Source: Actinomycetota bacterium (GTDB lineage Bacteria; Actinomycetota; Actinomycetes; Mycobacteriales; Jatrophihabitantaceae). From it: a stretch of DNA of 49,568 nucleotides. Location of the stretch: the NCBI GenBank assembly GCA_046734095.1, contig JBKPQM010000039.1, positions 1-49,568 of the forward strand, read 5' to 3'. The translations under genes were made by a program, and so were the position numbers. This document shows positions 5 to 21,708 of this stretch, in pieces. Numbering within the stretch: position 1 is the first letter of the stretch; each line of letters opens with the position of its first letter. The notes beneath the pieces are model-generated. The model was given only the letters and a program-made list of their open reading frames with translations, did not search any database and was not told where the DNA came from.

Positions 5-1519
5 GTGCCTACTCTGCCCACCGGCCAAGACAGCGCCGGGTTCGGTGGGGCCCGCATCGACGGTCTTGGGCTCATGACCGGGCACGGCGACGGGGCCGGC
101 GGCATCCAATTGCAAGCCAGCGTCAACAACATGCAAATGACGAACAACGTGCTGGAGAACAACGGCGGAGTCTTCGCCGGAGGCATCGGCATCGGTCAGC
201 CGTTCGTGCACGCGAGCCACAACTACAACGTGCGGGTCGCCAACGATCGGCTGATCGGCAATGGCGGGCTGACCTCGTCCGGTGGTCTGGGGATCTTCTA
301 CGGATCCAACAACTATGACGTGGCGAACAGCATCTTCTGCTCGAACTTCGGCGTCGAGTACGGCGGTGGGCTCTCGCACATCGGGCTCAGCCCCGGCGGC
401 AACATCCACGACAACAAGATCTACTACAACGAGGCCGTCGACAGCGGCGGCGGGATCGCGATCGAAGGCGAACTGGTCGTCGGCGGTGGCACACTGAGCG
501 CCGGGTCCGGGTCGGTCAACGTCGACCGCAACCTGATCCAGAGCAACACCAGCACGCTCGACGACGGCGGCGGCATCTTCGTCCTCGACGCCCTCACGCA
601 GCCGATCAACATCCGCAACAACATGATCGTGGACAACCTTGCGGCGGATCTGGGTGGCGCGATCGCGCTCGACGACGCGTCGAACATGCGGATCGTCAAC
701 AACACGATCGCGAACAACGTGACCACGGGATCCTCGGAGAACTCCGCGATCGGAGTGCCGCACGGCGCCGGCCTGACCTCGGAGGCGAACGATCCACTGT
801 TCCAGGCGACACTTCCAGCCGGTGCGCCGGACTTCTCGAACCCGGTCGCGCTGTTCAACAACATCTTCTGGAACAACGACGCGATGACGCTCAGCCAGTT
901 CGGCCCGGGAGCGGCTCTGGTCGACAACGGCTTCATCGACTTCGAGATCCACGGCACGACCAATAACGCCGACACGTTCACCCCGCGCTACTCGACTCTG
1001 ACCAACGGCAACATCCTCGGACCGAATGGGGTGCAGCACGCGGTTCCGGGTGGTCAGGGCAACCGAATCGGTGAAGATCCGTTGTTCGTCGCGCCGTTCG
1101 TCAATGAGCTCGCGGTCGCCGGATCGCGCCTCGACCCGCAGCAGGCGGCGGTGACGATCACCGGTCAGGACCCGCCGGTCGGGCTGACGGGCGACTACCA
1201 CCTCACCGGCACGTCACCGGCCATCGACCGCGGTGTGCGTTGCTCGAACACGCCAGTCCCGGCGAACTTGACGGCTTGCGCGGCCGCGGCCGTCCCGGCA
1301 CCGACGGGGCCGCCGCTGCTGCCCCCGGGGAGTGTTGCGACCGGTAACCAGGGCGACTACGACGGGCAGTTCCGGCCGCAGCTGCGAACGCTGCGTCTGC
1401 TGACGCCATGGGATCTTGGCGCCGACGAGGTCCCCGGCGTGCCGATACCACTAGGCGGCCCGGCAGCGGCGGCGCTTGCACTTCCATCCATACCACCGGC
1501 CCGAGCTCGGATGGTCTGA
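5..1519 (+). CDS. Right-handed parallel beta-helix repeat protein (PbH1 / choice-of-anchor-Q-like), 5' end cut by the window edge
   Basis: Frame is open from the window edge. It shows repeated ~22-25 aa units such as NNVLENNGGVFAGGIGIG, NKIYYNEAVDSGGGIAIEG, NLIQSNTSTLDDGGGIFVLD, NNMIVDNLAADLGGAIALDD and NNTIANN. The C-terminal GDYHLTGTSPAIDRG ... WDLGADE is typical of beta-helix surface proteins. Stop TGA at 1517-1519. Confidence 0.7.
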   Translation: MPTLPTGQDSAGFGGARIDGLGLMTGHGDGAGGIQLQASVNNMQMTNNVLENNGGVFAGGIGIGQPFVHASHNYNVRVANDRLIGNGGLTSSGGLGIFYGSNNYDVANSIFCSNFGVEYGGGLSHIGLSPGGNIHDNKIYYNEAVDSGGGIAIEGELVVGGGTLSAGSGSVNVDRNLIQSNTSTLDDGGGIFVLDALTQPINIRNNMIVDNLAADLGGAIALDDASNMRIVNNTIANNVTTGSSENSAIGVPHGAGLTSEANDPLFQATLPAGAPDFSNPVALFNNIFWNNDAMTLSQFGPGAALVDNGFIDFEIHGTTNNADTFTPRYSTLTNGNILGPNGVQHAVPGGQGNRIGEDPLFVAPFVNELAVAGSRLDPQQAAVTITGQDPPVGLTGDYHLTGTSPAIDRGVRCSNTPVPANLTACAAAAVPAPTGPPLLPPGSVATGNQGDYDGQFRPQLRTLRLLTPWDLGADEVPGVPIPLGGPAAAALALPSIPPARARMV

Positions 1520-1556: not shown

Positions 1557-2876
1557 ATGACCAGTCATCCAGGCATCGCCCGCCGCGACTTTCTAAAGGC
1601 TGCGGGGCTGGGCGCCGCCGGGGCGGTAGCCGTGGGGGCCGCGCTGCGGTCCGGGCTGTCGCGTCCCGCCTCGGCGGCCACGACGGCGCTCTCGCTGGTC
1701 GCCTCGGACGGGTACATGAGCGTGCCCGGCCGGGAAGGCAACCCCGTCTACATCTTCGGCTTCGTACCGGTCGACCCGACCCTGTCCGTCGACCAGCTCG
1801 AGGTGGCGTACAAGGGGCACACGAAGCACACCGCGCCGCATTTGAACTTCCGGCAGGACGACGACATCAAGATCACGCTGACGAATCTGGGGCTGGTGCA
1901 ACGGCCGGACCTCACCGACTCACACACGATCCACTGGCACGGTTTCGATATTCCGTCGCCCCTCAATGACGGCGTGCCTGAGGTGTCTATCGCGGTGCCC
2001 ATCGGCAAGCAGGTCACCTACTTCTACCGCCCGCACCGCGAGGGCACGTACATGTACCACTGCCACTTCGAGGACGTGGAACACGTGCAAATGGGCATGA
2101 CCGGGATCGTGTTCGTGCGTCCGCTACAGGATGTCAACGGCGCGGGCGCGGGCGTGCCGATCGCTCGCCAGGAGGGCGGAGCGTCGACGGCGCCGCTCGG
2201 CTACGCGTACAACGACGGCAACGGATCCACCGCCTACGACCGGCACTTCGCCATTTTGCTCAACGAGGTGTGGAAGAACTTCCACGATGGCGACCGCGAC
2301 ATTCAAGAGTCGATCGCTACCGACTACAACCCGCAGTGGTTCACCCTTAACGGCCGGTGCTATCCGCAAACCGTGCTGCCGAACGATGATCCTGCCCTGG
2401 CGGCCCCGATGCGGATCGCCACCCCGAACCCGAACTACAACAACGCTGTGGACTACAGCCAGCCCAACTCGGCGCTCATCCAGGTGAACCCGGGCGATCG
2501 CGTCCTGCTTCGCCTGGCCAACCTCGGGTATCAGCAGCACGCGATGCAACTGCCAGGTATACCGATGAAGGTTGTCGGGCAGGATGCGTCCTGGCTGGGC
2601 AAAGACGGTGTCGACAAGACGTACTTGACGAACACGCTCTATATCGGACCCGGTGAGGCCCGCGACGTGCTGTTCACCGCTCCCGCCTACAACTCGGCGC
2701 GCCCGTCGGGAACGGACGGCCGGGGCAGCTACAACGTCTACCTGTTCAAGAACCGAGACTGGCGCAGACTCTCCAATTTCGGGGCACCGCCCGGACCAGG
2801 GGGAATGCAAACCGAAGTTCGCGTGTACTCGACCGCGCTTCCCGCCCAGAGCAACGTGAGCCAGACCTATGTCTGA
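1557..2876 (+). CDS. Tat-exported multicopper oxidase family protein (MCO-1), Cu ligands only in the N-terminal cupredoxin domain
   Basis: ATG at 1557 is preceded by GAGAAGGGGGA. Twin-arginine signal is SHPGIARRDFLKAAGLGAAGAVAVGAA. HWHG lies at 1932-1943 and YHCHFEDVEHVQMGM at 2055-2099. The C-terminal domain has only a degenerate QQHAMQLPG. Confidence 0.85.
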   Translation: MTSHPGIARRDFLKAAGLGAAGAVAVGAALRSGLSRPASAATTALSLVASDGYMSVPGREGNPVYIFGFVPVDPTLSVDQLEVAYKGHTKHTAPHLNFRQDDDIKITLTNLGLVQRPDLTDSHTIHWHGFDIPSPLNDGVPEVSIAVPIGKQVTYFYRPHREGTYMYHCHFEDVEHVQMGMTGIVFVRPLQDVNGAGAGVPIARQEGGASTAPLGYAYNDGNGSTAYDRHFAILLNEVWKNFHDGDRDIQESIATDYNPQWFTLNGRCYPQTVLPNDDPALAAPMRIATPNPNYNNAVDYSQPNSALIQVNPGDRVLLRLANLGYQQHAMQLPGIPMKVVGQDASWLGKDGVDKTYLTNTLYIGPGEARDVLFTAPAYNSARPSGTDGRGSYNVYLFKNRDWRRLSNFGAPPGPGGMQTEVRVYSTALPAQSNVSQTYV

Positions 2877-4917
2877 GCAGGCGACCGCGCGCCGCGGAAA
2901 GAAGAGCACAATGACGCACAAGATGTGGCGCCTGGGGGCGGTTCTGGCGCTCGCCGCCGGCTCGCTGTTCGCCGTGGCCGGGCACGGGTCGGCACTACCG
3001 CCCGGCGCCAAGGTGGGCATGGTCTGCCCGGACCCGGTCGCCGGCGCCACGCAGACCTTCAACCTGGAGACAAAAACCGGCTACATCGAAACGCCCGATG
3101 GCAACAGCGTCTTCATGTGGAGCTACGACGACCCGGGCGTGAACGGCGGTCGCTTCCAGAGCCCCGGCCCGGTTCTATGCGCCAGGCAGGGACAGACGAT
3201 CGTTGTCAACCTGACGAACCACCTGCCGGAGCCGGCCTCCGTCGTCTTTCCAGGACAGCAGAACGTGACCACGACCGGGGGCACGCCTGGCCTGCTGACG
3301 ACGGAGGCTGCCTCCAACGGCGGCACCGTGACCTACACCTTCACTGCATCGAACCCGGGCACGTACCTCTATGAGAGCGGCTCAAATGTCGCGAAGCAGG
3401 TCGAGATGGGTCTGTACGGCGCCCTGGTCATCAGGCCGAGTGCCGGCGCCAACTTCGCCTACGGTGCATCCACGACGCAGTTCGACCCGAGCCGCGAGTA
3501 CCTAGCACTGCTCGCCGACATCGATCCGTTCCTGCACCACGCGGTGGAGACCGGCACCACGTACAACTTCAACGGGCGCGACAACCGGTACTTCACGATC
3601 AACGGGCGTAGCTTCCCGGACACGATCCAGGACAACGGGTCGGGCTTGCTACCGAACCAGCCGTACGGAGCGCTCGTGCGCATCCAACCGAACACCCCGA
3701 CCAACACGCTGCCGGGCCTGATCCGGATGGTCAACGCCGGCGTGGACAATCACCCGTTCCACCCGCACGGCAACCACACGACCCAGATCGCCCAGGACGG
3801 CAGCCTGCTGACCAGCCCCGGTGGCACCCCGGCGTTCACGGAGCATTTCGGCGAGACGATCGCAGCCGGGCAGACCGAGGACTTCCTGCTGCGCTGGGAC
3901 GACACCGACAAGTGGGATCCGGGAACGAACCCCCTGCCCGTGCCGCCGCCGAACTACCGGGACGTGGCCTTCAAGGACGCCAACACCTGGTACAGCGGCA
4001 GCCCGTACCTCGGCTACAAGGGAACACTGCCGGCCGGCACGACGACGCAAAACATCTGCGGCGAGTGGTATTTCCCGTGGCACAGCCACGCACTGAACGA
4101 GTTCACCAACTTCGACGAGGGCTTCGGCGGCATGGGAACACTGTTGCGCGTCGATCCGCCGGGCGGCTGCTTCACCACCGCCGCGTCGACGGCGATTCTC
4201 AGCGGCGTGTTGAAGAGCGGCTCGGCGTCGGCGTTGGCCGTGGATGACGCCAACTACTACCAGGTCAACCCGCGCACCACGACCCGTCCGACGGCGACGA
4301 CCGCAGTGCAACCGACCATCACGGTCGCCTCGGCGGCCGGCTTCCCGACGACGCCGGGCTACTACATCCGCATCGACAACGAGGTCATGCAGGTCACTGC
4401 CGGGCAGGGTACGACGACCTGGACGGTCGCGCGGGGGCAGCTCGGCACCGCGGCCGCCACGCACGCCGCCGGCGCGATCATTACCGCGTTGGCCAACGAC
4501 TGGTACGGCTCGTTCAGCGGCGTGCGGGCCGGATCGACGAACCTGAGGGTGACGTACAAGGGCAAGAACTGCGGCAACACCACTGGCGCGATCTGCGCCG
4601 CGCTGACGACAAACCTGCCGCAGCAGACGGTCAAGATCTGCAACTGGACGATTCCGCTTGCAGCCAACTGCAACAGCGCGGCATCGCCCGGATGGGTGAC
4701 CTTGCCGGCACCGCCGGCCAACCCGCAGGCCGTCGGCTCAACCGAGCCGCCCGCCTCGACCTGGACCCCGCCCGGTTCCGCCAGCCAGTACATCGGCACC
4801 GGGGCGTTCAACGGCCAGGTCCGGGTACTCATCCACAACCAGCGCTGGACGGCTCCAAACCCGACGGCGTTCTCGACGTGGGGGAACCTGCTGGCCCTCA
4901 CCTACGACGCGCCGTGA
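2869..4917 (+). CDS. Secreted multicopper oxidase family protein (MCO-2) with Cu ligands only in the second cupredoxin domain, plus a ~250-aa C-terminal extension
   Basis: ATG at 2869 overlaps the MCO-1 stop (2874-2876) by 8 nt. Signal-like N-terminus is RRGKKSTMTHKMWRLGAVLALAAGSLFAVAGHG. HPFHPHG lies at 3751-3771 and WHSH at 4078-4089. An alternative start is ATG 2911. Confidence 0.8.
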   Translation: MSEQATARRGKKSTMTHKMWRLGAVLALAAGSLFAVAGHGSALPPGAKVGMVCPDPVAGATQTFNLETKTGYIETPDGNSVFMWSYDDPGVNGGRFQSPGPVLCARQGQTIVVNLTNHLPEPASVVFPGQQNVTTTGGTPGLLTTEAASNGGTVTYTFTASNPGTYLYESGSNVAKQVEMGLYGALVIRPSAGANFAYGASTTQFDPSREYLALLADIDPFLHHAVETGTTYNFNGRDNRYFTINGRSFPDTIQDNGSGLLPNQPYGALVRIQPNTPTNTLPGLIRMVNAGVDNHPFHPHGNHTTQIAQDGSLLTSPGGTPAFTEHFGETIAAGQTEDFLLRWDDTDKWDPGTNPLPVPPPNYRDVAFKDANTWYSGSPYLGYKGTLPAGTTTQNICGEWYFPWHSHALNEFTNFDEGFGGMGTLLRVDPPGGCFTTAASTAILSGVLKSGSASALAVDDANYYQVNPRTTTRPTATTAVQPTITVASAAGFPTTPGYYIRIDNEVMQVTAGQGTTTWTVARGQLGTAAATHAAGAIITALANDWYGSFSGVRAGSTNLRVTYKGKNCGNTTGAICAALTTNLPQQTVKICNWTIPLAANCNSAASPGWVTLPAPPANPQAVGSTEPPASTWTPPGSASQYIGTGAFNGQVRVLIHNQRWTAPNPTAFSTWGNLLALTYDAP

Positions 4918-4943
4918 GCACCGAGGCGAAGGAGACAGTGGCG

Positions 4944-5924
4944 ATGAGCAAGTTTGCAGCCATGAAGCCGCGGTTGCCTCGACTGACCAAGGCGCTGGCC
5001 GTACTGATCATGATCTCAGCCGGCGTTGTCGCGGCCGGTTCGAGCGCCTCGGCCGCGCCCGTCACGATCAACCTGTGCGCCGAGCCAGGCACGGCGACGC
5101 TCACCGGCGCCGTGAGTGTGCCGATCTGGGGATTCCACACCGGCGCCTGCGGATCGGCTGCAGCGACCCTGCCCGGTCCGCAGTTGGTGGTGAACGAAGG
5201 TGACACGGTCACAGTCAACATCACCAACGGTTTGCCGGCCGGGCACACGCTGACTTTCGAGATCCCGGGCGTCACCTTCAATGCAGGCCCCACCGACATC
5301 GCGGCCGGCTCATCGGGCAGTGTGTCGTTCACGGCCAGCGCGCCCGGGACGTACCTGTACCAGGCCGGGGGCACCCAGGGGCGGCAGGCGGCGATGGGAC
5401 TCGCCGGCGCCTTGGTCGTCAACTCGGCAACCGCCGGCCAGGCGTACGACAACCCGGCGACGATCTATGACGCTCAGGCGACGCTGGTGCTGGGAGCCGT
5501 GGACCCGAATTTCAACGCCGCGCCTGACACCTTCGACATGTACGGCTATCAGGCGACGTACTGGCTGATCAACGGCAAGGCGTACCCGGATACCGCGGGG
5601 ATTATCGCGGCACCGACCCAGCGGCTGCTTCTCCGTTATGTCAACGCCGGCTTCGACAACACGTCGATGGCGTTGCTTGGCATGCACGAGAAAGTGGTCG
5701 CGCGGGATGCCCACTTGCTGAACAACCCGTTCGACGCCAACGCCGAGACGATCCCGGCCGGTGCCACCGAGGATGCCATCGCAACCGTGCCGAGCGGTCA
5801 GGCGCCCAGCTCGCACGGATTCCCCTTGTACAACCGGCAATTGCACGTAACGAACGGAGACCAGACCGGGCCCAGTCCGACGCCGGCCACCGGTGGCGGC
5901 ATGTTGACCTTCATCCATCCTTAG
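4944..5924 (+). CDS. Secreted cupredoxin / MCO-like protein (MCO-3) lacking recognisable copper-ligand motifs
   Basis: ATG at 4944 follows GAAGGAGAC. Signal peptide is MSKFAAMKPRLPRLTKALAVLIMISAGVVAAGSSASA. The scaffold is paralogous to MCO-2 (VTVNITNGLPAGHTLTFEIPG, GTYLYQAGG...AAMGLAGALVV). I found no HxH pairs. Confidence 0.65.
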   Translation: MSKFAAMKPRLPRLTKALAVLIMISAGVVAAGSSASAAPVTINLCAEPGTATLTGAVSVPIWGFHTGACGSAAATLPGPQLVVNEGDTVTVNITNGLPAGHTLTFEIPGVTFNAGPTDIAAGSSGSVSFTASAPGTYLYQAGGTQGRQAAMGLAGALVVNSATAGQAYDNPATIYDAQATLVLGAVDPNFNAAPDTFDMYGYQATYWLINGKAYPDTAGIIAAPTQRLLLRYVNAGFDNTSMALLGMHEKVVARDAHLLNNPFDANAETIPAGATEDAIATVPSGQAPSSHGFPLYNRQLHVTNGDQTGPSPTPATGGGMLTFIHP

Positions 5925-5934
5925 GGGCCCGTCA

Positions 5935-6477
5935 GTGAGCGGACGAGCAACCCTAGAGCCCGCGCCGGCGGTCCCCCCGCCGCCGCGCGCGGGGTACCTC
6001 ACCTCTCGCCGGATCCGGCTGCTCGGCGCCATCACCGGCGTCGTCGTCGTGGCCCTCGTCACGTCGCTCGTGCTCTGGCTGACCCGCGACACGCCGTCGA
6101 ACCGGGCCGAGGTGAAGGTGCCCGCATCGTGGGCCCGTCCCGTCGTCAGCGCGGCGGGCCTCGTCGACCGCAGCGGCGTCAAGATCACGCAGGTAGCGGT
6201 CACCGGGGGTGGAGGGCTGGTTGACCTGCGCTTCCAGGTGATCGACCCGGACAAGGCGAACGCCCTGCATGACGCGGCGACACCGCCGGCGGTCGTGGAC
6301 GAACGCACCGGGTTGGTCGTGCACGACCTGCTCATGAGCCACTCGCACACCGGGGCGTTCAAGCCTGGGGTCACGTACTACTACGTGTTCAACAACCCGG
6401 GTGAATTCGTCCAACGCGGTGCCCGGGTGGTCGTGATGCTCGGCAACGCGCAAGTCGAGCACGTGAAGGTGCGATGA
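5935..6477 (+). CDS. Hypothetical single-pass membrane-anchored protein
   Basis: GTG start lies 10 nt after the MCO-3 stop. It has one hydrophobic segment (LLGAITGVVVVALVTSLVLWL) followed by a ~125-aa extracytoplasmic domain containing LLMSHSHTG. Its stop overlaps the next start (ATGA at 6474-6477). Confidence 0.5.
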   Translation: MSGRATLEPAPAVPPPPRAGYLTSRRIRLLGAITGVVVVALVTSLVLWLTRDTPSNRAEVKVPASWARPVVSAAGLVDRSGVKITQVAVTGGGGLVDLRFQVIDPDKANALHDAATPPAVVDERTGLVVHDLLMSHSHTGAFKPGVTYYYVFNNPGEFVQRGARVVVMLGNAQVEHVKVR

Positions 6478-8675
6478 AACGTCTCGCTCTGGTATTGGCG
6501 CTTATGGGCGCCGTTCTGGTCGCGCCGCCGGCCGGGGCGTCGGCCCGGCCGGCGTTCGTCGACGTGGTGGTGGTGCTGAAGTCGCAAGCGAACGTGGCCG
6601 GCGTGCACGCGCCGACCCGCGCGGCCCGACTGGCGGCCGTCGAGCGCGCGCTGCGCGATCAGGCGGCCCGGACCCAATACGGCGTCCTTCGGCTGCTGGC
6701 TCAACGGCCGGACTCGGTCGCCGCGGTCACGCCGCTGTGGATCGCGAACGCCATCGAGGTGAAGGCAACGCCGGATGTGATTCGCGAGGTAGCCGCCCGA
6801 CCCGAGGTGGCTGCGGTGCAACCGAACGCTACGATCCAGGCTCCGGCGGCCGTGACGAGCAGCGCCGCCGAGCCGAACCTCGACGTCGTGAACGCCCCTG
6901 ATCTGTGGGACCTGGGATACCGCGGTCAGGGCGTCGTCGTCGCGAGCATGGACACCGGCGTGGACGCCACGCATCCTGATCTGTCCGGGTCCTGGCGCGG
7001 CGGCTCGAACAGCTGGTACGACCCGAACGGCCAGCACACGACACCGACTGACGTGAACGGACACGGCACCCAGACGACGGGCGTGATGGTCGGCGGCGCC
7101 GCCGGCGGCACGTCGATCGGCCTGGCACCGGATGCGAAGTGGATCGCAGTCAAGATCTTCAACGATAGCGGCCAGGCCACGACGAGCCGCATCCACCAAG
7201 GGTTCCAGTGGCTGCTCGACCCGGACGGCAACCCGAGTACGCCGGATGCGCCGAACGTGGTCAACAATTCGTGGACGATGTCGACCGCCAGCTGCGCGCT
7301 GGACTTCCAGCTCGACCTGCGCAGCCTGCGCGCGGCCGGCATCCTGCCGGTGTTCGCGGCCGGCAACAACGGTCCGACCGTCGGGACGGTGATGAGCCCG
7401 GCTAATCTGCCTGAGGCTTTCGCCGTCGGCGGCACCGATAACTCGGACGCGATCTACCCCTACAGCAGCCGCGGCCCGTCGTCGTGCGCCGGCGCGACCG
7501 CTCCGGCGCTCGCCGCGCCCGCCACGAACGTGCGCACGAGCGACCTCTACGGCGGCTACGTAACCGATACAGGCACTTCGATGGCCGCCCCCCACGTGTC
7601 GGGCGCGCTTGCTCTTCTGCTGAGCGCGGTGCCGGGTCTGTCCGCGGACCAGCAGGCAGCTGCCCTGGAGGGCAGTGCTGTCGATCTGGGCGCGGCTGGT
7701 CTCGACAACAACTTCGGCTACGGCCGGTTGGACGTCCTCGCCGCCTACCATCGGGTCGCGACGACCCCTGACTACACGGTGGGTGTGTCACCGTCTTCGG
7801 TCACGGTCGCTGCCGGTGGCCAGGCTTCCTACGCGGTGACGGTGACCGGCGTCAACGGCTTCATCGGCGATGTCGCGCTATCGCTCAGCGGATTGCCGTC
7901 GTCGGTGGGGTCGGCGACGTTCAGCCCAGCTGTAGTTTCCGCTGCCGGCACGTCGCAGCTGAATGTGACGACACTCGCGAGCGCGCCGCCGGGCACGTAT
8001 CCGCTGACGATCACCGGCACTAGCGGGACGACCACCCACACGGCCACGGCGACCCTCGTCATCCCGCAGCCCCCGAACTTCAGCTTTGGCGTCACGCCGA
8101 CCACGCGGACGGTCAGCTCCGGCTCGGCCGCCGCATACACCGTCTCGGTTGGATCGCTGAACGGGTTCACCGGTGACGTCGCCTTGTCGCTCAGCGGGTT
8201 GCCGGCGTCGGTCGGGTCGGCGACATTCAGCCCGGCGACCGTGGCCGGAGCCGGCAGTTCGCAGCTCACCGTGACGACGCTCGGGACTGCTCCGGGCGGC
8301 ACCTACCAGCTCACGATCACCGGCACGAGTGCCGGGATCACCCATACCGCCACGGTCAGCCTCACCGTGCAGGCGCGTGACTTCACCCTGTCGGCGACGC
8401 CACAATCGATCACGGTCACCCGCGGGCTGACCGCCTCATACAGCGTGGCTGTAGGAGTGGTCAACGGCTTCACCGGTAATGTCACGCTGTCGCTGAGCGG
8501 AGCGCCAAGCGGCTCCATCGCGTCGTGGTCGGCCAACCCGGTCGCCGCGCCGGGGACTTCGACGCTGCGCATCCGCACCACCGGGTCCACCTTGCGGGGG
8601 ACGTTCACCGTGCGGGTGACCGGCAAGAACGGCACGCTCGTCCACCAGGTGAGCGTGACCTTGATCGTCCGGTAG
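6474..8675 (+). CDS. S8 family (subtilisin-like) serine peptidase with a propeptide and three C-terminal Ig-like repeats
   Basis: Signal peptide is MKRLALVLALMGAVLVAPPAGASA. The catalytic triad motifs are VVVASMDTGVD (Asp), NGHGTQTTG (His) and GTSMAAPHVSGA (Ser). The N-terminal region looks like an I9 inhibitor propeptide. Confidence 0.9.
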   Translation: MKRLALVLALMGAVLVAPPAGASARPAFVDVVVVLKSQANVAGVHAPTRAARLAAVERALRDQAARTQYGVLRLLAQRPDSVAAVTPLWIANAIEVKATPDVIREVAARPEVAAVQPNATIQAPAAVTSSAAEPNLDVVNAPDLWDLGYRGQGVVVASMDTGVDATHPDLSGSWRGGSNSWYDPNGQHTTPTDVNGHGTQTTGVMVGGAAGGTSIGLAPDAKWIAVKIFNDSGQATTSRIHQGFQWLLDPDGNPSTPDAPNVVNNSWTMSTASCALDFQLDLRSLRAAGILPVFAAGNNGPTVGTVMSPANLPEAFAVGGTDNSDAIYPYSSRGPSSCAGATAPALAAPATNVRTSDLYGGYVTDTGTSMAAPHVSGALALLLSAVPGLSADQQAAALEGSAVDLGAAGLDNNFGYGRLDVLAAYHRVATTPDYTVGVSPSSVTVAAGGQASYAVTVTGVNGFIGDVALSLSGLPSSVGSATFSPAVVSAAGTSQLNVTTLASAPPGTYPLTITGTSGTTTHTATATLVIPQPPNFSFGVTPTTRTVSSGSAAAYTVSVGSLNGFTGDVALSLSGLPASVGSATFSPATVAGAGSSQLTVTTLGTAPGGTYQLTITGTSAGITHTATVSLTVQARDFTLSATPQSITVTRGLTASYSVAVGVVNGFTGNVTLSLSGAPSGSIASWSANPVAAPGTSTLRIRTTGSTLRGTFTVRVTGKNGTLVHQVSVTLIVR
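7767..8672 (+). repeat. Three tandem ~100-aa (about 300-bp) domain repeats inside the S8 peptidase
   Basis: Units are 7767-8069, 8070-8375 and 8376-8672. Shared motifs are NGF(I/T)G(D/N)V(A/T)LSLSG(L/A)P and TxTGTS...H(T/Q)...L(V/T)(I/V). Units 1 and 2 are also clearly similar at the DNA level. Confidence 0.75.
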
Positions 8676-8684
8676 CAGCCGGTC

Positions 8685-9647
8685 TTATCGGACGCTCCCG
8701 CCCGGCTTGAGCCGGCCGGGCGGCATCGGGGGAGCGTCCAGCCGCTCGCCACCCCCCACGACGGTGCCGAACCGGGAGGCCGCCATCCACTGCTCGCGTG
8801 CTGCCGCGATCTCCTCGCTCGAGCGGGCGACGAAGTTCCACCACATCACGATCTGTTCGGCGAACGGCTCGCCGCCGAGCAGCAGCACGCGGGCGCCTGA
8901 CGACGAGGTCAGCCGCAGATCACGCCGCGCCGCGCCGAGATACAACATTGCCCCCGGCGCCAGCGGTACGCCGTCCACATCGAGAGCGCCGGACATGACG
9001 AGGACGGCGTGCTCGAAGTCGGGCTCCAACGGCACCAGGGCGTCGGCGCCGGGCGCGAGGGTTACGTCGGCGCCGATGATCGGCGAATAGGCCTGCCCCG
9101 GGGACCTAGCGCCGGCGAGCTCGCCCATGATCACCGTCACGGACAGGCCGACGTCGCGGAGCTCCGGCAGTTCCGCGTGATGAGCCCAGGACGGCGCGAT
9201 CTCCCGCGCCGAGTCCGGCAGCGCCACCCACAGCTGCGCTCCGTGAAGCAGGGCGGGATGGGGCACCGGCGACTGCTCGGCGTGCGCGATGCCGTGGCCA
9301 GACGTCATCAGGCCAAGCTGACCGGGCTTGATCAGCTGGTCGCTGCCGATGCTGTCTCGGTGGTGAACCTCGCCCGACAGCAGCCAGCTCACCGTCTGCA
9401 GGCCCATGTGGGGATGGGGTGGCACCTGCATCCCCGGTCCGGCGGCGATGTCGTCGGGACCGTAGTGGTCCACGAAGCACCAGGGGCCGACCAGCCGTCG
9501 GCCGAGATTCGGCAACAACCGGCGCACCTTCGTGCTTTCGCCGAGCATCACCTCCCGCCCGGCGAAGACCTGATGCACCGGTGTGGCGGTCACTCCCGAC
9601 CGGCCGCCGTAGGTGCCCAGATCAGGGGTGCGGTCTAGGTTGCTCAT
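8685..9647 (-). CDS. Pirin family protein
   Basis: Cupin metal motif is HPHMGLQTVSWLLSGEVHHRDSIG. The bicupin length (320 aa) fits. ATG at 9647. Confidence 0.85.
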   Translation of the reverse strand: MSNLDRTPDLGTYGGRSGVTATPVHQVFAGREVMLGESTKVRRLLPNLGRRLVGPWCFVDHYGPDDIAAGPGMQVPPHPHMGLQTVSWLLSGEVHHRDSIGSDQLIKPGQLGLMTSGHGIAHAEQSPVPHPALLHGAQLWVALPDSAREIAPSWAHHAELPELRDVGLSVTVIMGELAGARSPGQAYSPIIGADVTLAPGADALVPLEPDFEHAVLVMSGALDVDGVPLAPGAMLYLGAARRDLRLTSSSGARVLLLGGEPFAEQIVMWWNFVARSSEEIAAAREQWMAASRFGTVVGGGERLDAPPMPPGRLKPGGSVR

Positions 9648-9658
9648 TGGCTAACCTG

Positions 9659-9729: not shown

Positions 9730-11806
<2,077 letters not shown>

Positions 11807-13159: not shown

Positions 13160-14191
13160 CTAGCCGGCGAGGTGCGCGGCCGACGTCCGGCCGAGCAGGG
13201 TGGGGATCGTGGCCACCGCATCGGCCAGCTCGTCGAGCGATTCGCCGACCAGCGCTTGCGCGCCGTCGCACAGCGCCGTCTCGGGATTGGGGTGCACGTC
13301 GACCATCACACCGTCGGCGCCGGCGGCCATGCCGGCCCGCGCGAGGGGCACGACGAGGTCGCGCCGCCCGGACGCGTGGGACGGGTCGACGATCACCGGC
13401 AGGTGCGAGAGCCGCTGCACCAGCGGGACGGCCGACACATCCAGCAGGTTGCGGATGGACGACTCGAAGCTGCGGATACCGCGCTCGCACAGCACGATGT
13501 CGAGGTTGCCGCGCTGGGCGATGTACTCGGCGGCCATCAGCCATTCCTCGTATGTGGCGGTGAGGCCGCGTTTGAGCATTACCGGCTTGCCGGCAGCGCC
13601 CACCGCCTGCAGCAAGCCGAAGTTCTGCATGTTGCGGGTACCGATCTGGAGCATGTCGGCGTGCTCGGCGACCACGTCGACGTCGGCGACCTCAGTCACC
13701 TCCGTGACCACGGGCAGCCCCACCGCCTCGCGTACCTCGGCGAGGATGCGCAGGCCGGCCGCACCCAGGCCCTGGAAGGCGTACGGCGACGTGCGCGGCT
13801 TGTACGCGCCGCCGCGCAGGAGGGTGGCGCCGGCCCGCTTGGACATGCGCGCGGCCTCGAGGGTCTGCTCGGCGGTCTCGACGGCGCAGGGCCCGGCGAT
13901 CAGGGTGAACGTGTCGGGGCCGATCGGCACGCCGCCGACCCGCACCGTGGTCCGCTTGGCGTGATTTTGGGCGGACACCAGCTTGTACGGCGCCGTGATG
14001 CGCATCGTCTCGGTGACGCCGGGTAGTCCGCTGTCGTCCAGGGTTTCCAGCACGTCCTCGGAGCCGACGACACCGATGATCGTGCGGGTGACGCCGCGAC
14101 TGACGAACGCCTGCCCGCCGTGCGCCTCGATGTGCGTGACGACGCCCGCGATGTCGTACTCAGTGGCCGCCGGAGCCATGACGATGACCAT
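13160..14191 (-). CDS. Class I-beta DAHP synthase with an N-terminal ferredoxin-like regulatory domain
   Basis: N-terminal MVIVMAPAATEYDIAGVVTHIEAHGGQAFVSRGVTRTIIGVVG parallels Thermotoga-type DAHPS. The core shows GPCAVE, LLRGGAYKPRTSPYAFQG and IVDPSHASG. Confidence 0.8.
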   Translation of the reverse strand: MVIVMAPAATEYDIAGVVTHIEAHGGQAFVSRGVTRTIIGVVGSEDVLETLDDSGLPGVTETMRITAPYKLVSAQNHAKRTTVRVGGVPIGPDTFTLIAGPCAVETAEQTLEAARMSKRAGATLLRGGAYKPRTSPYAFQGLGAAGLRILAEVREAVGLPVVTEVTEVADVDVVAEHADMLQIGTRNMQNFGLLQAVGAAGKPVMLKRGLTATYEEWLMAAEYIAQRGNLDIVLCERGIRSFESSIRNLLDVSAVPLVQRLSHLPVIVDPSHASGRRDLVVPLARAGMAAGADGVMVDVHPNPETALCDGAQALVGESLDELADAVATIPTLLGRTSAAHLAG

Positions 14192-14283: not shown

Positions 14284-16275
14284 TCAGAACACGATGAGGG
14301 TGATCGTGTCGCCGCGTTTCACCTCGGTGCCGCTGGGCGGATTCACACTGAGCACCTGCCGGCCGTCACCACCGCCACCACCGAACACCGGGCGGACCTT
14401 GACCTTGAGCCCAGCGTCCTCGAGGGTTCTGCGTGCGTCGCCGACGGGCGTGCCCGTCGCGATATCTGGCACCGTCACCCTGTCGGCACCCTTCGACACC
14501 GTCAACGTCACCGTGCCGCCCTTCGGCACTTGCGACCCGCCGCCGGGATCCTGAGAGATGACCTTGCCTTGGTCGACGTCGTTGTTGGCCTGCTCGACGG
14601 TCTTCACGTCGAAGCCGGCGTCCTGCAGCGTGTTCGTCGCGTCGTCCTGATTCTGGCCGGTCACGTCCGGGACCTCGACCATCTCCGGGCCGCTCGACAC
14701 GATCAGCGTCACCGGCGTGTTGGCACGCACGTTGGTACCAGCAGGCGGATCAGTGCCGATCGCGTCGCCTTTCTTGACGCTGCCGTCGGCGCGCTGGGTG
14801 GTCGTCACCTTGACGTGCACCGCGCTCAGGGCGTCCCTCGCCGTGCCCTCGGACTTGTTTCGCACGTCGGGCAGCACATACACCTTCGGGCCGAGTGAGA
14901 CCAGCAAGGTGATCTTGGCGTTTCGCCGCACCTGGCTGTTGCCGCTCGGTTTGGTGCCGACGACGTTGCCCCGGGCGACGGTCTCGCTGTTCACCTGCGA
15001 CGTCGTCACCTTGTCGAATCCGGCCTGGTGGAGCGCCGCGAGGGCGGTGCCCGGTGACTCACCGGCGACCACTGGTACCCGGGTGTACCGCCCGGCGACG
15101 AGCCACCACCCGGTGAACCCGGCGGCGCTGCCGATCAGCAGGAACACGAGCAGGATGATCAACAGACCGCGCCGGCGCTTGCGCCGGTGGCCGCGATGGG
15201 GGTCGATCGTAGGCGGCGGGGGAAGCCGGGTCGATCTGGGCGGCGGCGGCCGGGAGCCGAACCCGGCCGGACCATCGACTGCGGTGTCATGCACTCGGGC
15301 GCCGGGGCCGAGCCGCTGCGTCGTCCCGGCGTCTGGGCCGACCGCCGTGTTCGCGTCGGCGGCGGAGGGATTCAGCTTGGAGCGGGGACGGGCCGGCACC
15401 GGCACCACCGGCAGCCCGAGTTCGGCGCGGACCTCCGCCAGCTGCGCGAGAAAAGCCCCGGCGTCAGCGGGCCGCCCCGACGGGCCGCTGTCGGTGGCCC
15501 GCACCACGAGGTCGTCGAGTTGCGGGGGGATCCCGCCGACGCGTGAGGACGGCGCCGGCACCCGGCTGTGCACGTGCTGGTAGGCCACGGCCATCGCCGA
15601 GTCGCCGACGTACGGGGCGTCCCCGGTGAGCAGCTCGAAGAGCACGATGCCCGCCGAGTACACGTCCGTGCGCTGGTCGGCGTCAGTGCGGGTGACCTGC
15701 TCCGGCGAGCAGTACGCGACGGTGCCCATCACCAGGCCGGTACGGGTGGCCGTGCCCTCGGCGCCCACCGCTCGGGCCAGGCCGAAGTCGGCAACCTTCA
15801 CCACGCCGTCGTCGGACAGGAGGATGTTCTCGGGCTTGACGTCGCGGTGCACCAGCCCGGCGCGGTGCGCGGCCGCCAGGGCGGCAAGCACGGGCTCCAT
15901 GATCGACACCGCTTCGGCCGGGCTGAGCCGGCCGCGCTCGCGCAGTAGGTCACGCAGGGTGCGGCCCTGGACGAGCTCCATGACGAGGAACACCAGGCGC
16001 CCGTGGTCGGTATCCTCAGAGCCCTGGTCGAACACCGCGACGGTGTTGATGTGCGCCAGCTTCGCCGACGCCCGTGCCTCCCGGGTGAAGCGGTCGGCGA
16101 ATGCGGGGTCGGCGGACAGCCCGCTGGACATGACCTTGATCGCGACGAGGCGGTCGAGCCGCTGGTCGACGGCGCTGTACACCGTCGACATCCCGCCGCG
16201 GGCGATGCGCGCGCGGATCCGATATCGGCCGTCGAGAACCTGGCCGACCAACGGATCCGCGGTGGCCGTGTGCAC
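14284..16275 (-). CDS. pknL: Ser/Thr protein kinase, PknL-like, with 4 extracellular PASTA repeats
   Basis: Kinase motifs are GGMSTVYSA...VAIKVM, HRDVKPENIL and DFGLAR. The TM segment is LLIILLVFLLIGSAAGFTGWWLV, followed by four ~65-aa PASTA-like units. It is syntenic with aroG and Rv2175c-like genes. GTG start at 16275. Confidence 0.85.
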   Translation of the reverse strand: MHTATADPLVGQVLDGRYRIRARIARGGMSTVYSAVDQRLDRLVAIKVMSSGLSADPAFADRFTREARASAKLAHINTVAVFDQGSEDTDHGRLVFLVMELVQGRTLRDLLRERGRLSPAEAVSIMEPVLAALAAAHRAGLVHRDVKPENILLSDDGVVKVADFGLARAVGAEGTATRTGLVMGTVAYCSPEQVTRTDADQRTDVYSAGIVLFELLTGDAPYVGDSAMAVAYQHVHSRVPAPSSRVGGIPPQLDDLVVRATDSGPSGRPADAGAFLAQLAEVRAELGLPVVPVPARPRSKLNPSAADANTAVGPDAGTTQRLGPGARVHDTAVDGPAGFGSRPPPPRSTRLPPPPTIDPHRGHRRKRRRGLLIILLVFLLIGSAAGFTGWWLVAGRYTRVPVVAGESPGTALAALHQAGFDKVTTSQVNSETVARGNVVGTKPSGNSQVRRNAKITLLVSLGPKVYVLPDVRNKSEGTARDALSAVHVKVTTTQRADGSVKKGDAIGTDPPAGTNVRANTPVTLIVSSGPEMVEVPDVTGQNQDDATNTLQDAGFDVKTVEQANNDVDQGKVISQDPGGGSQVPKGGTVTLTVSKGADRVTVPDIATGTPVGDARRTLEDAGLKVKVRPVFGGGGGDGRQVLSVNPPSGTEVKRGDTITLIVF

Positions 16276-19027: not shown

Positions 19028-19332
19028 CCTATACGGTGCTCGCTGTCCTGGGCGTGCTCGGCGCGGCCGCGGTCGACCAGCTGGTGCTGCGGACAAACCT
19101 CTTGCGGCGCAAGGCGTTCTGGACGGCGTACGCCATCGTCCTGTTCTTCCAGGTGATCGTAAACGGCGTGCTCACCGGCCTACCCATAGTCCGTTACAAC
19201 CCGCACGCAATCATCGGGCTGCGCTTCGTCTACGCGCCGATCGAGGACGTGCTGTTCGGCTTCACCATGGTGTTGGTGACGTTGGCTAGCTGGGTATGGC
19301 TCGGCGCTCGCGCCGCGCGGCGAGCGCGCTGA
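19024..19332 (+). CDS. crtYd: Lycopene cyclase domain protein (second subunit)
   Basis: ATGA overlap with crtYc at 19024-19027, with AAGGAG 9 nt upstream. It carries a PIEDVLFGFTMVLV motif. Confidence 0.75.
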   Translation: MTYTVLAVLGVLGAAAVDQLVLRTNLLRRKAFWTAYAIVLFFQVIVNGVLTGLPIVRYNPHAIIGLRFVYAPIEDVLFGFTMVLVTLASWVWLGARAARRAR

Positions 19333-20224
19333 TGAGCCCGCGCGCCGCGACACTGGCCCGTTTCGTCGCGGGCACCGCGATCCGGCGGCGGAATACGTTG
19401 TAGTCCGCATCCTCGATTTCGTCGAGGATGCGGCTGTACAGGACGAGCGCGGTCCGCAGGCAGTCGCGCGAGGTGGGATGTACCAGCTCGATGCCCGGCG
19501 CCGCGTGGCGGTACAGGTCGCGCGCGCGAGCGATCTCGGTGGCGAGCAGGTTGCGGATCGGCTGGTCGACCCGGCCGAAGCGCGCCGCGCGCTGCAGCCG
19601 ACCGACGTCCACGCCGAATGCGCACAGCGCCTCTTGCGGCAGGTACACGCGCCCGAGCTCCAGATCTTCGGCCACATCCCGGAGAAAGTTGGTGTACTGG
19701 AAGGCCATCCCGAGATCGATCGCGTACGGCTCGACAACTTCCCAGCGCATCCGCGGCTCGGCGCGTTCGAGAATCGGCAGCATCTGCAGGCCGATGACGG
19801 CCGCCGAGCCCCACATGTACTTCGCCAGATCGGCGAACGTCGCATACCCCGCGACGGTGAGGTCGGCCCGCATGGCTTCGAGGAAATCGGCGAAGTAGGA
19901 CTTGCGGATGTCCCAGCGGGTGATCGTGTCGATGACGGCCCGGCACACCGGATCAGCCGAGGTACCCAGACCGACGTCGGCGATGAAGTCTGCGCTCCAG
20001 GTCTCGAATCGGTCCGGGCTTGCGCCAAGTCGGTCCACGATGTCGTCGGCGTAACGCGCGAATCCGTAGAGGGCGTGGACGTAGGGCCTCTTGCCCGGCG
20101 GCAGTAGCAACGTAGCGATGTAGTACGTCTTGCCGTGAGCGGCGTTGATCCGGCGGCACAGCTCGTAGCTGGTGCGCAGCCGGGGTGACCCGATGCCGGC
20201 CGCGTTCAGCTCGCGACCTCTCAT
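19286..20224 (-). CDS. crtB: Phytoene synthase
   Basis: Motifs are YYIATLLLPPGKRPYVHALYGFARYADDIVD and YLPQE. ATG 20224 overlaps the crtI stop (ATGA). Confidence 0.9.
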   Translation of the reverse strand: MRGRELNAAGIGSPRLRTSYELCRRINAAHGKTYYIATLLLPPGKRPYVHALYGFARYADDIVDRLGASPDRFETWSADFIADVGLGTSADPVCRAVIDTITRWDIRKSYFADFLEAMRADLTVAGYATFADLAKYMWGSAAVIGLQMLPILERAEPRMRWEVVEPYAIDLGMAFQYTNFLRDVAEDLELGRVYLPQEALCAFGVDVGRLQRAARFGRVDQPIRNLLATEIARARDLYRHAAPGIELVHPTSRDCLRTALVLYSRILDEIEDADYNVFRRRIAVPATKRASVAARGLISALAARRERRAIPS

Positions 20225-21708
20225 CCGCCAATCGTGGCAGAGGGCCCGCCGGCCCGGAGCACCCGCTCGGCCGCGAGCCGACCTGAGAGGAGCACCATCG
20301 GTATGCCGACCCCGGGCTGAATGTTCGAGCCGCAGAACACCAGGTTCTCGATCCGCCGATCCAGCGTGGGCAGACGGAACGGACCGGTCTGCCCGAAGCG
20401 GTGCGCCGCCGCGAAGGGTGTTCCGGCCGGCATGCCCTGGGCGGCCCAATCGGCCGGCGTCGTGACGTGCTGGACCTCGGGATCGATATCAAAGCCGCGG
20501 CCGGCCAGCGTGTCGACCATGTGCTCGACGTAGCGGGAGCTTTCCTTCGTCCAGTCGATCGGCCGGCGGTGCTCTAGATTCGGCGCCGGGAACAGCGCGT
20601 AGTACGCGTGTGCGCCCGCCGGCGCGAGTGACGGGTCGGTCACCGTGGGCGCGGTCAACAGGAACGACGGATCGCTCATCAAGCGACCCTGCCGGATGAT
20701 CTCGTCGAACGTCGACGTCCAGGCCGACCCGAACGAAAGCGTGTGATGGGCGTCCGGACGCGCACCCCGTACGCCGGCGTACAGTACCGCGCACGACGGC
20801 GAATACCGCAGCCGCCTCGGTTCGCGGCTCAGCAATTCAGCGCAGGCCGTGGCCGGATGGGCGTTGACGACGACGACGTCGGCGGCGATACGCTCGCCGG
20901 AGCCGGTGATCACGGCCGCGGCTCGTGTGCGATCGACCTCGATCCGGGTGGCGACCGTGCCGTAGCGTATGGCGACGCCATGCTTAACGGCCGCACCGGC
21001 CAGCGCCTGGGGGACGGCCTGCACGCCGCCCATCGGGAAGTAGACACCGCCCACGCAGTCCAGGTAGGTGATTACCCCGTAGATCGCAAGAGCCTGCCCG
21101 GGCGCCAGCCCGGCATACGTCGCCTGAAAGGTGAACAGCCGGCGCAGCCGCTCGTCCCGCACGAACGAAGCCACCCTGGGTCCGAGCCGGCCGAACCCGC
21201 CGAGGCTGATCAACCGCAGCAGCGGGCGACCCAATAGCGCCCAGGGCGAATCCAGATTGCGGGCGATGAAGTGCGGCATCTCGATCTCGTACAGCTCGCG
21301 CAAGTAGGCGACGAGGCGGCGGTACCCCTGGGCATCGCGAGCACCGCAGAGCGCATGGATCGCGGCCGCCGTCGCGTCGACATCGGAGTGCACGTCGAGC
21401 GTGGATCCATCCGGGAATCGGGCCCGGTATGCGGGGTCGAGGCGTCGCAGATCCAGCCAGTTCTCGAGGTTTTCGCCAACGGCAGCAAGGGTTTCGGCGA
21501 TCAACGATGGCATTGTCAGCACCGTCGGCCCGGTATCGAACGTGTAGCCCCGGTCGTGCAGCGCGCCGGCCTGGCCGCCCGGCCGATCGGAGCGTTCGAG
21601 CACGATCACTTCGCGGCCCGCACCGGCCAAGTGGAGTGCGGCCGAGAGCCCGGCCAGTCCGGCGCCTACGATCACAATCCGGTCCGTACGCCCAGGTACG
21701 GTTCTCAC
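20221..21708 (-). CDS. crtI: Phytoene desaturase
   Basis: FAD fold is RIVIVGAGLAGLSAALHLAGAGREVIVLE. The protein is CrtI-like throughout. GTG 21708 overlaps the idsA stop (GTGA). The longer track ORF is an upstream shadow extension. Confidence 0.9.
   Translation of the reverse strand: MRTVPGRTDRIVIVGAGLAGLSAALHLAGAGREVIVLERSDRPGGQAGALHDRGYTFDTGPTVLTMPSLIAETLAAVGENLENWLDLRRLDPAYRARFPDGSTLDVHSDVDATAAAIHALCGARDAQGYRRLVAYLRELYEIEMPHFIARNLDSPWALLGRPLLRLISLGGFGRLGPRVASFVRDERLRRLFTFQATYAGLAPGQALAIYGVITYLDCVGGVYFPMGGVQAVPQALAGAAVKHGVAIRYGTVATRIEVDRTRAAAVITGSGERIAADVVVVNAHPATACAELLSREPRRLRYSPSCAVLYAGVRGARPDAHHTLSFGSAWTSTFDEIIRQGRLMSDPSFLLTAPTVTDPSLAPAGAHAYYALFPAPNLEHRRPIDWTKESSRYVEHMVDTLAGRGFDIDPEVQHVTTPADWAAQGMPAGTPFAAAHRFGQTGPFRLPTLDRRIENLVFCGSNIQPGVGIPMVLLSGRLAAERVLRAGGPSATIGG

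Follow-up and report, generated by a model that had tools for sequence, protein, structure and literature searches.

To our knowledge, textbook multicopper oxidases (MCOs) draw every copper ligand from one chain or from identical chains. In the type C two-domain MCOs, represented by the blue copper oxidase of Nitrosomonas europaea (PDB entry 3g5w) and the metagenomic mgLAC (2zwn), each chain consists of two cupredoxin domains, the first of which bears the type-1 (T1) copper site and an HCH motif. The subunits of 3g5w, 2zwn and NirK, all built of two cupredoxin domains, assemble as trimers. In type C trimers, domain 1 and domain 2 face each other across the subunit interfaces, and the trinuclear copper cluster is built where domain 1 of a subunit meets domain 2 of the next. 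These enzymes are homotrimers that carry all four HxH pairs on every chain and hold three centers. Here we describe three adjacent genes of an actinomycetotal bacterium of the family Jatrophihabitantaceae (assembly GCA_046734095.1) in which no chain carries more than two such pairs. The genes, MCO-1, MCO-2 and MCO-3, lie within the 49,568 nucleotides (nt) of contig JBKPQM010000039.1 that we analyzed, hereafter the window. We consider it probable, on the strength of sequence comparisons, that their products are subunits of one extracytoplasmic MCO whose center is shared by domain 1 of MCO-1 and domain 2 of MCO-2.

The three open reading frames (ORFs) are co-directional and intact, have high GC content at third codon positions, and each encode their own signal peptide:

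1557-2876, forward strand: MCO-1, 439 amino acids (aa), two-domain MCO paralog with a twin-arginine translocation (Tat) signal
2869-4917, forward strand: MCO-2, 682 aa, two-domain MCO paralog with a Sec-type signal
4944-5924, forward strand: MCO-3, 326 aa, two-domain cupredoxin paralog with a Sec-type signal and without copper ligands

MCO-1 and MCO-2 overlap by 8 nt (ATGTCTGA, 2869-2876), and a gap of 26 nt (4918-4943) separates MCO-2 from MCO-3. The Tat motif of MCO-1, RRDFLK, is located at 1581-1598, and its signal scored over the cutoff of TAT_signal_seq (TIGR01409). Domain 1 of MCO-1 contains HWHG (1932-1943) within HTIHWHG (1923-1943), followed by YHCHFEDVEHVQMGM at 2055-2099, of which HCHFEDVEHVQMGM occupies 2058-2099. 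Three residues ahead of HWHG, H123 makes a canonical HxxHxH motif and serves as the first T1 His; the T1 set of this domain is therefore complete (H123/C169/H176/M181), and its cluster His are H126, H128, H168 and H170. Domain 2 of the same protein shows QQHAMQLPG at 2532-2558 and is devoid of the trinuclear-cluster His. In MCO-2 the arrangement is reversed: domain 1 is ligand-free, with TNHLPEPASVVFPG at 3214-3255 and YLYESGSN at 3364-3387, and domain 2 carries HPFHPHG (3751-3771) and WHSH (4078-4089), in which Ser replaces Cys and which supply the cluster His H298, H300, H405 and H407.

An exhaustive scan for HxH motifs returned only HWH and HCH, which belong to domain 1 of MCO-1, and HPH and HSH, which belong to domain 2 of MCO-2; MCO-3 gave none. 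Because the scan was exhaustive, no HxH motif was overlooked in the trio. The eight His of a trinuclear center are held by no single chain, with two HxH pairs on MCO-1, two on MCO-2 and none on MCO-3. The half-sites sit on different paralogs and the third paralog has none, so there can be at most one center per three subunits. Since the ligand set is complete only for MCO-1 domain 1 joined with MCO-2 domain 2, one T1/trinuclear unit is expected per trio. An initial annotation of this DNA, made from the letters alone, had already located these motifs, the 8-nt overlap and the 26-nt gap, and all of them were found where it had placed them. It had also read MCO-1 domain 1 as holding two His pairs and a full T1 set, to which we add H123 as the first T1 His.

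Family searches placed all three proteins among the cupredoxin oxidases. MCO-1 matched the Pfam families Cu-oxidase_3, Cu-oxidase_2 and Cu-oxidase above their cutoffs, MCO-2 matched Cu-oxidase_3, and MCO-3, which the annotation had described as a cupredoxin scaffold lacking His pairs, matched Cu-oxidase_3 (E value 8e-12) and Cu-oxidase (E value 2.5e-5). No curated NCBIfam cutoff was reached by any of the three, and the models for CopA, CueO, laccase, ascorbate oxidase and NirK scored far below theirs. Sequence comparisons of the trio with the PDB returned MCOs and NirK. The closest solved relatives of MCO-1 were the type C enzymes 3g5w and 2zwn, with both domains covered but at an E value of only 1e-13, and the trio is not orthologous to stand-alone homotrimeric laccases.

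Alignment to these solved structures upheld the ligand mapping. In MCO-1, HTIHWHG and YHCH match 3g5w residue for residue, and domain 1 has the T1 site and two HxH pairs of a type C enzyme. The domain 2 of the same chain does not give the other two pairs: its "hamqlpg" stands opposite "haihthg" of 3g5w. In MCO-2 domain 1, "svvfpgq" and "ylyesgs" stand opposite "htihwhg" and "mwyhchv" of 3g5w, and in domain 2 "hpfhphg" stands opposite "hgihlhg" of laccase 4f7k. We also compared the ligand columns of the orthologue families by profile-profile alignment. At these columns MCO-2 domain 1 has A/V/P and E/S/G/Q/L, and MCO-3 domain 1 has H/gap and Q/A/G/Q/L. In MCO-1 domain 2 the residues are H/Q/P, as against H/H/H in 3g5w, and the second HxH is absent; MCO-3 domain 2 has T/A/L and a deletion. 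The position of the T1 Cys is occupied by Ser in MCO-2 and Ala in MCO-3. Non-ligand residues or a deletion are found at the ligand columns of all four ligand-free domains, and the profile-profile and solved-MCO alignments agree that each half-site is confined to one paralog, which corroborates the description of MCO-2 as a mirror image of MCO-1. Within the trio, domain 1s resemble domain 1s most and domain 2s resemble domain 2s, so the three genes are whole-gene paralogs, the closest pair being MCO-2 and MCO-3 (hhalign E value 3e-89).

To learn how widely this pattern is kept, we scanned one genome per species for relatives of MCO-1, found them in 403 species, and analyzed the best 80 loci. 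The exact MCO-1 sequence of the window, looked up in the contig collection, gave no entry. These belong to Actinomycetota (Jatrophihabitantaceae at 92% identity, Cellulomonas, Kribbella, Micromonospora, Actinoplanes, Dactylosporangium, Solirubrobacter and others) and to Chloroflexota (Chloroflexia and Anaerolineae). Orthologue alignments comprised about 75 to 80 sequences with 43 to 92% identity to the window protein. In MCO-1, H123, H126, H128, H168, C169, H176 and M181 are invariant in all 80 orthologues, and H170 is kept in 79 of them. The T1 ligand is the sole conserved Cys of this protein, and its acidic T1 loop, HCHFEDVEH, has invariant E172, D173 and E175. In MCO-2, each of the 74 orthologues with coverage of the relevant columns has H298, H300, H405, S406 and H407, and two Cys pairs (C53/C104 and C397/C434) are conserved. 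Given that only about a quarter of the columns reach 95% conservation in these alignments and the ligands are invariant or nearly so, the ligand pattern is beyond chance. Across 74 orthologues of MCO-3, there was no position at which His, Cys or Met is conserved; 36 of its columns are at least 95% conserved, compared with 112 and 103 for the other two paralogs. The positions that have lost their ligands are themselves constrained. YESG in MCO-2 and Q-H-x-x-Q-x-P-G in MCO-1 are near-invariant, with Q331 of MCO-1 kept in 67 of 80 orthologues and P333 in 71. Neither MCO-1 nor MCO-2 carried all four pairs, be it in the window or among the roughly 80 orthologues, and the earlier claim that the eight His come together only when MCO-1 domain 1 is joined with MCO-2 domain 2 therefore holds.

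Gene order and export signals are equally stable. Wherever a locus among these best 80 was long enough, the order was a giant beta-helix protein, MCO-1, MCO-2, MCO-3 and a small protein, with MCO-3 directly after MCO-2 in each, and the co-occurrence check suggested with the annotation gave the same gene order throughout. MCO-1 and MCO-2 are separated by a median of -8 nt, and in 62 of 77 loci the distance is zero or less. A twin-arginine motif was recognized in 75 of 79 MCO-1 orthologues, with an invariant RR pair, and MCO-2 and MCO-3 carry Sec-like signals.

The first member of this gene order enters the window only with its C-terminal part:

5-1519, forward strand: giant secreted protein, C-terminal part, about 500 aa, gene beginning upstream of the window

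This part corresponds to the C-terminal third of a protein of about 1,750 aa. The Cellulomonas orthologue (1,745 to 1,772 aa) has a signal peptide and SdrD_B, CarboxypepD_reg and fn3_3 domains. An AlphaFold 2 (AF2) model of the window fragment is a right-handed beta-helix with a predicted local distance difference test score (pLDDT) of 87 and a predicted template modeling score (pTM) of 0.88. A Foldseek search of the fragment against the PDB returned nothing at an E value of 1e-3 or lower, the top entries being AlgE epimerases and polysaccharide lyases. A NosD-like function of the beta-helix was considered and dropped, as the NCBIfam match is weak, partial and restricted to the start of the helix (E value about 1e-6, 26 bits against a cutoff of 300), and the Foldseek search gave no NosD at an E value of 1e-3 or lower.

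In 76 of 80 loci the gene for the giant protein precedes MCO-1, and in other lineages the two are joined. We searched MCO-1 exhaustively against representatives of 50%-identity clusters and examined the best 150 matches. In at least 25 of these the giant protein is fused N-terminally to the MCO-1 module, in proteins of 900 to 2,800 aa whose N-terminal 1,200 residues align with the stand-alone Cellulomonas protein. At the fused loci an MCO-2-like gene comes next, followed by an MCO-3-like gene where the contig reaches that far (loci L084 and L086). We take this fusion, with MCO-2- and MCO-3-like genes following, as evidence that the giant protein belongs to the system. Both L084 and L086 keep the ligand split of the window trio at only 35 to 40% identity: the motifs of the distant fused lineages are HxxHxH and HCH...H...M in the first protein, HPxHHH and WHSH or FHSH in the second, and none in the third. 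In all, more than 80 bacterial species keep the split. E172 and E175 of the acidic T1 loop are also found in L084.

The accessory parts of MCO-2 and MCO-3 are more variable. MCO-2 of the window ends in a long extension:

4189-4914 (residues 441-682), forward strand: C-terminal extension of MCO-2, about 240 aa, containing Cys

Its Cys are kept among close homologues, Pfam returned no match for it, and parts of it reach pLDDT 70 to 93 in an AF2 model. In the distant clade MCO-2 is without this extension, and MCO-3 bears Big_13 or PKD (immunoglobulin-like, Ig-like) domains instead. Which of the two proteins bears such an extension differs between clades, a pattern that suits a part appended to a whole complex better than one belonging to a single protein.

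Several side features of the fused lineages were noted. Homologues of the giant protein that are fused to MCO-1 can add Big_9/cadherin-like repeats, and one fusion protein, P0505 (L083, 3460-11910), has a PAP2/vanadium-haloperoxidase-like domain at residues 2297-2424, between the Ig repeats and the MCO-1 module. Beside the fused-type cluster of L086, at 4140-6692 on the reverse strand, lies a gene for a glyoxal-oxidase-like protein with CBM96, which may hint at an extracellular oxidative context or be a coincidence. Apparent fusions within the trio proved to be artifacts. A 1,123-aa protein that seemed to join MCO-2 to MCO-3 (L066, 9131-12502, from a long-read metagenome-assembled genome) reflects a frameshift, since the true C terminus of MCO-2 is found in a different frame and the signal peptide of MCO-3 is retained; P0415 and probably P0337 are chimeras of a similar kind. 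Such chimeras call for caution with Rosetta-stone arguments drawn from metagenome assemblies.

Downstream of MCO-3, two further genes of the window belong to the same neighborhood:

5935-6477, forward strand: small membrane-anchored protein, 180 aa, with an N-terminal hydrophobic helix and MSHSH at 6334-6348
6474-8675, forward strand: S8 subtilisin-like peptidase (Pfam Peptidase_S8, E value 3e-52)

The small protein follows MCO-3 at a median of 8 nt (63 loci). M134, H136 and H138 (an MxHxH motif) and H111 are conserved among its 62 orthologues, and a scan of Pfam and NCBIfam placed it in no family over cutoff. These features make it a candidate extracytoplasmic copper chaperone. In L084 the gene after MCO-3 encodes a homologue that lacks the MxHxH motif. 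Kinship with EfeU/Ftr1 was rejected, as the match in question (E value 0.002) spans only the transmembrane helix. The peptidase gene starts with a 4-nt overlap of the small-protein gene, and its translation ends in three tandem Ig-like repeats of about 97 aa each (GF[TI]GDVALSLSGLP...). Of the 80 loci, 67 have a peptidase gene of this type no more than 8 kb from the trio. A CopC-CopD fusion lies within the same distance in 61 of 80; it is not in this window and here is probably located upstream of the window start, as in L001. Genes for a histidine kinase and a response regulator accompany about 45 loci. In L084, SCO1/SenC and cytochrome c genes (9032-9652 and 7401-9053, reverse strand), divergent from the gene for the giant protein fused to MCO-1, occupy the place of the actinobacterial CopC-CopD. 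A larger conserved module has the trio at its core and also includes the giant protein, the MxHxH protein, the S8 protease and usually CopC-CopD and a two-component system. The comparative evidence supports the shared center proposed in the initial annotation, which was incomplete in treating the three paralogs by themselves when they sit in a larger module whose giant protein is elsewhere fused to MCO-1.

These data strongly imply that MCO-1 pairs with MCO-2, and complementarity, synteny and translational coupling point further to a heterotrimer, possibly of 1:1:1 stoichiometry. The motifs, their complementarity and near-invariance, the synteny, the translational coupling and the fusion are observations; from them we infer the physical assembly, the ring order, the site of copper loading and any substrate as follows. 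A homotrimeric type C two-domain MCO would have undergone gene triplication and then complementary ligand loss. MCO-1 would leave the cytoplasm folded via Tat, contributing the T1 copper (H123, C169, H176, M181) and, from domain 1, the cluster His H126, H128, H168 and H170. MCO-2 would leave via Sec and contribute H298, H300, H405 and H407 from domain 2. The trinuclear cluster would form at the interface between MCO-2 domain 2 and MCO-1 domain 1, as in the homotrimeric two-domain MCOs, and the ligand-free MCO-3 would take the third position, leaving the other two interfaces copper-free. With the order MCO-2, MCO-1, MCO-3, the result would be a pseudo-six-domain ring with a single T1/trinuclear unit, in which electrons pass from the T1 site of MCO-1 over the Cys-His bridges to the shared cluster, where O2 is reduced to water. 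The complex would work with the giant beta-helix/Ig-repeat protein, probably docked on it, and the giant protein may present a polymeric or particulate substrate. The axial Met and the conserved acidic T1 loop are compatible with a metal-ion substrate, which is only a hint. Because the subunits are not all exported by the same route, both the complex and the copper cluster would have to form outside the cytoplasm, and such assembly would in turn explain the linked copper-handling genes (CopC-CopD, the MxHxH protein and the distant SCO1/SenC). The Tat-exported MCO-1, whose T1 ligand is its only conserved Cys, versus the Sec-like MCO-2 and MCO-3, with Cys pairs in MCO-2, fits this picture.

A ring of this kind would resemble the six-domain MCOs (ceruloplasmin, hephaestin and MnxG of Bacillus), in which six cupredoxin domains surround a single trinuclear cluster. 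According to the evolutionary scheme of Nakamura and Go, six-domain MCOs are reportedly derived from a two-domain trimer. Six-domain MCOs are one polypeptide, however, and ceruloplasmin has three T1 sites, whereas the trio comprises three separately exported chains with one T1 site. Its six cupredoxin domains are spread over three ORFs, and the PDB comparisons of the trio gave no sequence match specific to six-domain MCOs. The Mnx complex of Bacillus, which the initial annotation rightly cited as a heteromeric precedent of a different kind, also is a multisubunit MCO encoded by adjacent genes. It consists of MnxG with an MnxE3F3 hexamer, and all MCO copper sites are in MnxG (PMC5622069). MnxE and MnxF are proteins of about 12 kDa that are unrelated to MCOs or to characterized proteins, and in 2017 the authors of that work called MnxG the only characterized MCO to need accessory proteins (PMC5622069). 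The partners in our locus are instead MCO paralogs and the cluster itself would be divided between two of them, which sets them apart from MnxE and MnxF as described, although no search with the sequences of these two was made.

Two further trimeric systems appeared among the PDB matches of the trio. Nmar_1354 of Nitrosopumilus maritimus (9cck) is a type C-like trimer described as an alpha-alpha-alpha' "heterotrimer," in which the heterogeneity arises because proteolysis removes an extra cupredoxin domain from one copy of a single gene product (PMC11761707). Unlike in the trio, every Nmar_1354 chain has a complete ligand set. NirK, which was also among the Foldseek matches, forms trimers of two-domain cupredoxin subunits and has a copper site between subunits. 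This site is of the mononuclear type-2 kind, has three His and lacks HxH/HCH pairs, whereas the HxxHxH and HCH motifs of the trio are of MCO type, and the trio falls outside the NirK model TIGR02376 (31, 26 and 35 bits against a cutoff of 296). MofA of Leptothrix and other large Mn-oxidizing MCOs are large secreted proteins with MCO motifs and in this respect superficially resemble the fusions of the giant protein with MCO-1. MofA carries all four MCO motifs, A to D, in one chain, and its gene shares the mofABC operon with genes for an FKBP-type protein and a cytochrome c (PMC8218464). We ruled out a MofA-type identity because of this single-chain motif set; in addition, MofA is not followed by two MCO paralogs, unlike the fused loci. 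The trio would work like a type C two-domain MCO or a ceruloplasmin-like ring, yet it departs from each in a defining feature: no chain of the trio bears the whole ligand set, as in the former, or all six domains, as in the latter. Full-text literature searches found no heteromeric or heterotrimeric MCO or laccase built of paralogs.

Several points speak against a single heteromeric enzyme. Different export routes rule out Tat hitch-hiking of the partners, and assembly outside the cell is unusual for an MCO. No genuine fusion between MCO-1, MCO-2 and MCO-3 was present in the loci and proteins that we examined. The ring position of MCO-3 is suggested by two considerations only, trimer geometry and strict co-occurrence, and synteny taken by itself fits separately acting proteins of one pathway equally well. 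The AF2 model of MCO-2 is poor, with a mean pLDDT of 59 (from a shallow alignment of sequences at 69% identity or more) and about 30 in the part of domain 2 that bears WHSH. Used coarsely, the same model found two-domain MCOs and NirK as its best Foldseek matches.

These points leave room for other readings of the locus. One keeps the cluster shared by MCO-1 and MCO-2 and gives up the 1:1:1 ring: the two would form a heterodimer or some other ring, and MCO-3 would be a separate, copper-free adaptor connecting the oxidase with the cell wall, a substrate or the giant protein. The ligand pattern indeed demands no more than the MCO-1/MCO-2 pairing, MCO-3 is the least conserved paralog by the column counts given above, and in one clade it has long Ig/PKD extensions typical of binding modules. 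Against an adaptor, the solved two-domain relatives 3g5w, 2zwn and NirK are trimers, a pair would leave two interfaces open, and MCO-3 is a full two-domain paralog that is present in every complete locus, including those of the distant fused lineages; we regard this reading as unlikely. A somewhat more improbable view is that the three proteins act apart and serve the giant protein in one pathway, MCO-1 as a blue-copper electron carrier or an enzyme whose cluster is incomplete, possibly in homotrimeric form, MCO-2 as a copper chaperone, store or mononuclear site, and MCO-3 as a noncatalytic binder. Differing signal peptides imply separate export, synteny indicates no more than a functional link, and the linked copper-handling genes put copper trafficking within the module. 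Separate action, however, fails to account for exactly the eight His of a canonical cluster being invariant or nearly so, four and four on facing domain types, or for the persistence of this split at 35 to 40% identity, and it leaves the HCH bridge of MCO-1 without a cluster to feed.

It is also conceivable that the paralogs are decaying duplicates, pseudo-enzymes that shed their ligands at random; three of the six domains are without any ligand and MCO-1 domain 2 keeps a single vestigial His. The intact, GC3-rich ORFs, the 43 to 92% identity across two phyla, the strong purifying selection at ligand and pseudo-ligand positions and the occurrence of MCO-1 relatives in 403 species all oppose this. 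The near-invariance of the pseudo-ligand positions in particular argues against decay, which the conservation data effectively refute and which we consider extremely improbable. We therefore return to a center shared by MCO-1 domain 1 and MCO-2 domain 2 as the reading that best accommodates the ligand pattern.

If this reading is true, an O2-reducing cluster is divided between two gene products and a copper-free third paralog closes the ring, a new quaternary solution for MCOs and a living example of the proposed step from two-domain trimers to ceruloplasmin-type six-domain oxidases. Expressing one gene of the trio alone as a laccase would then fail, and hundreds of genomes label these genes "multicopper oxidase domain-containing protein." That the tie to a giant secreted beta-helix protein, to a protease and to genes for copper delivery is conserved suggests that abundant soil bacteria have an uncharacterized extracellular oxidative system. 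We speculated, tentatively and with the balance leaning somewhat the other way, that the locus encodes an extant intermediate between homotrimeric two-domain and six-domain MCOs. This would be an obligate heterotrimer with one shared center, its Tat- and Sec-exported subunits joined outside the cell with the help of dedicated copper chaperones. It would sit on, or in other phyla be fused to, a beta-helix/Ig scaffold of 1,700 to 2,800 residues, and the whole would be an extracellular oxidase machine not recognized before, acting on a polymer or mineral and widespread in soil Actinomycetota and Chloroflexota.

The genes of the window past 8.7 kb are housekeeping genes unrelated to the trio. Two 3-deoxy-D-arabino-heptulosonate 7-phosphate (DAHP) synthases lie within 4 kb of each other (10445-11806, forward strand, and 13163-14191, reverse strand); the classes represented are class II and type I with a ferredoxin-like N-terminal domain. 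The reverse-strand regions 14287-16275 and 19289-21864 encode a PknB-like Ser/Thr kinase with four PASTA domains and then a phytoene synthase and desaturase, all ordinary actinobacterial housekeeping functions with no relation to the trio.

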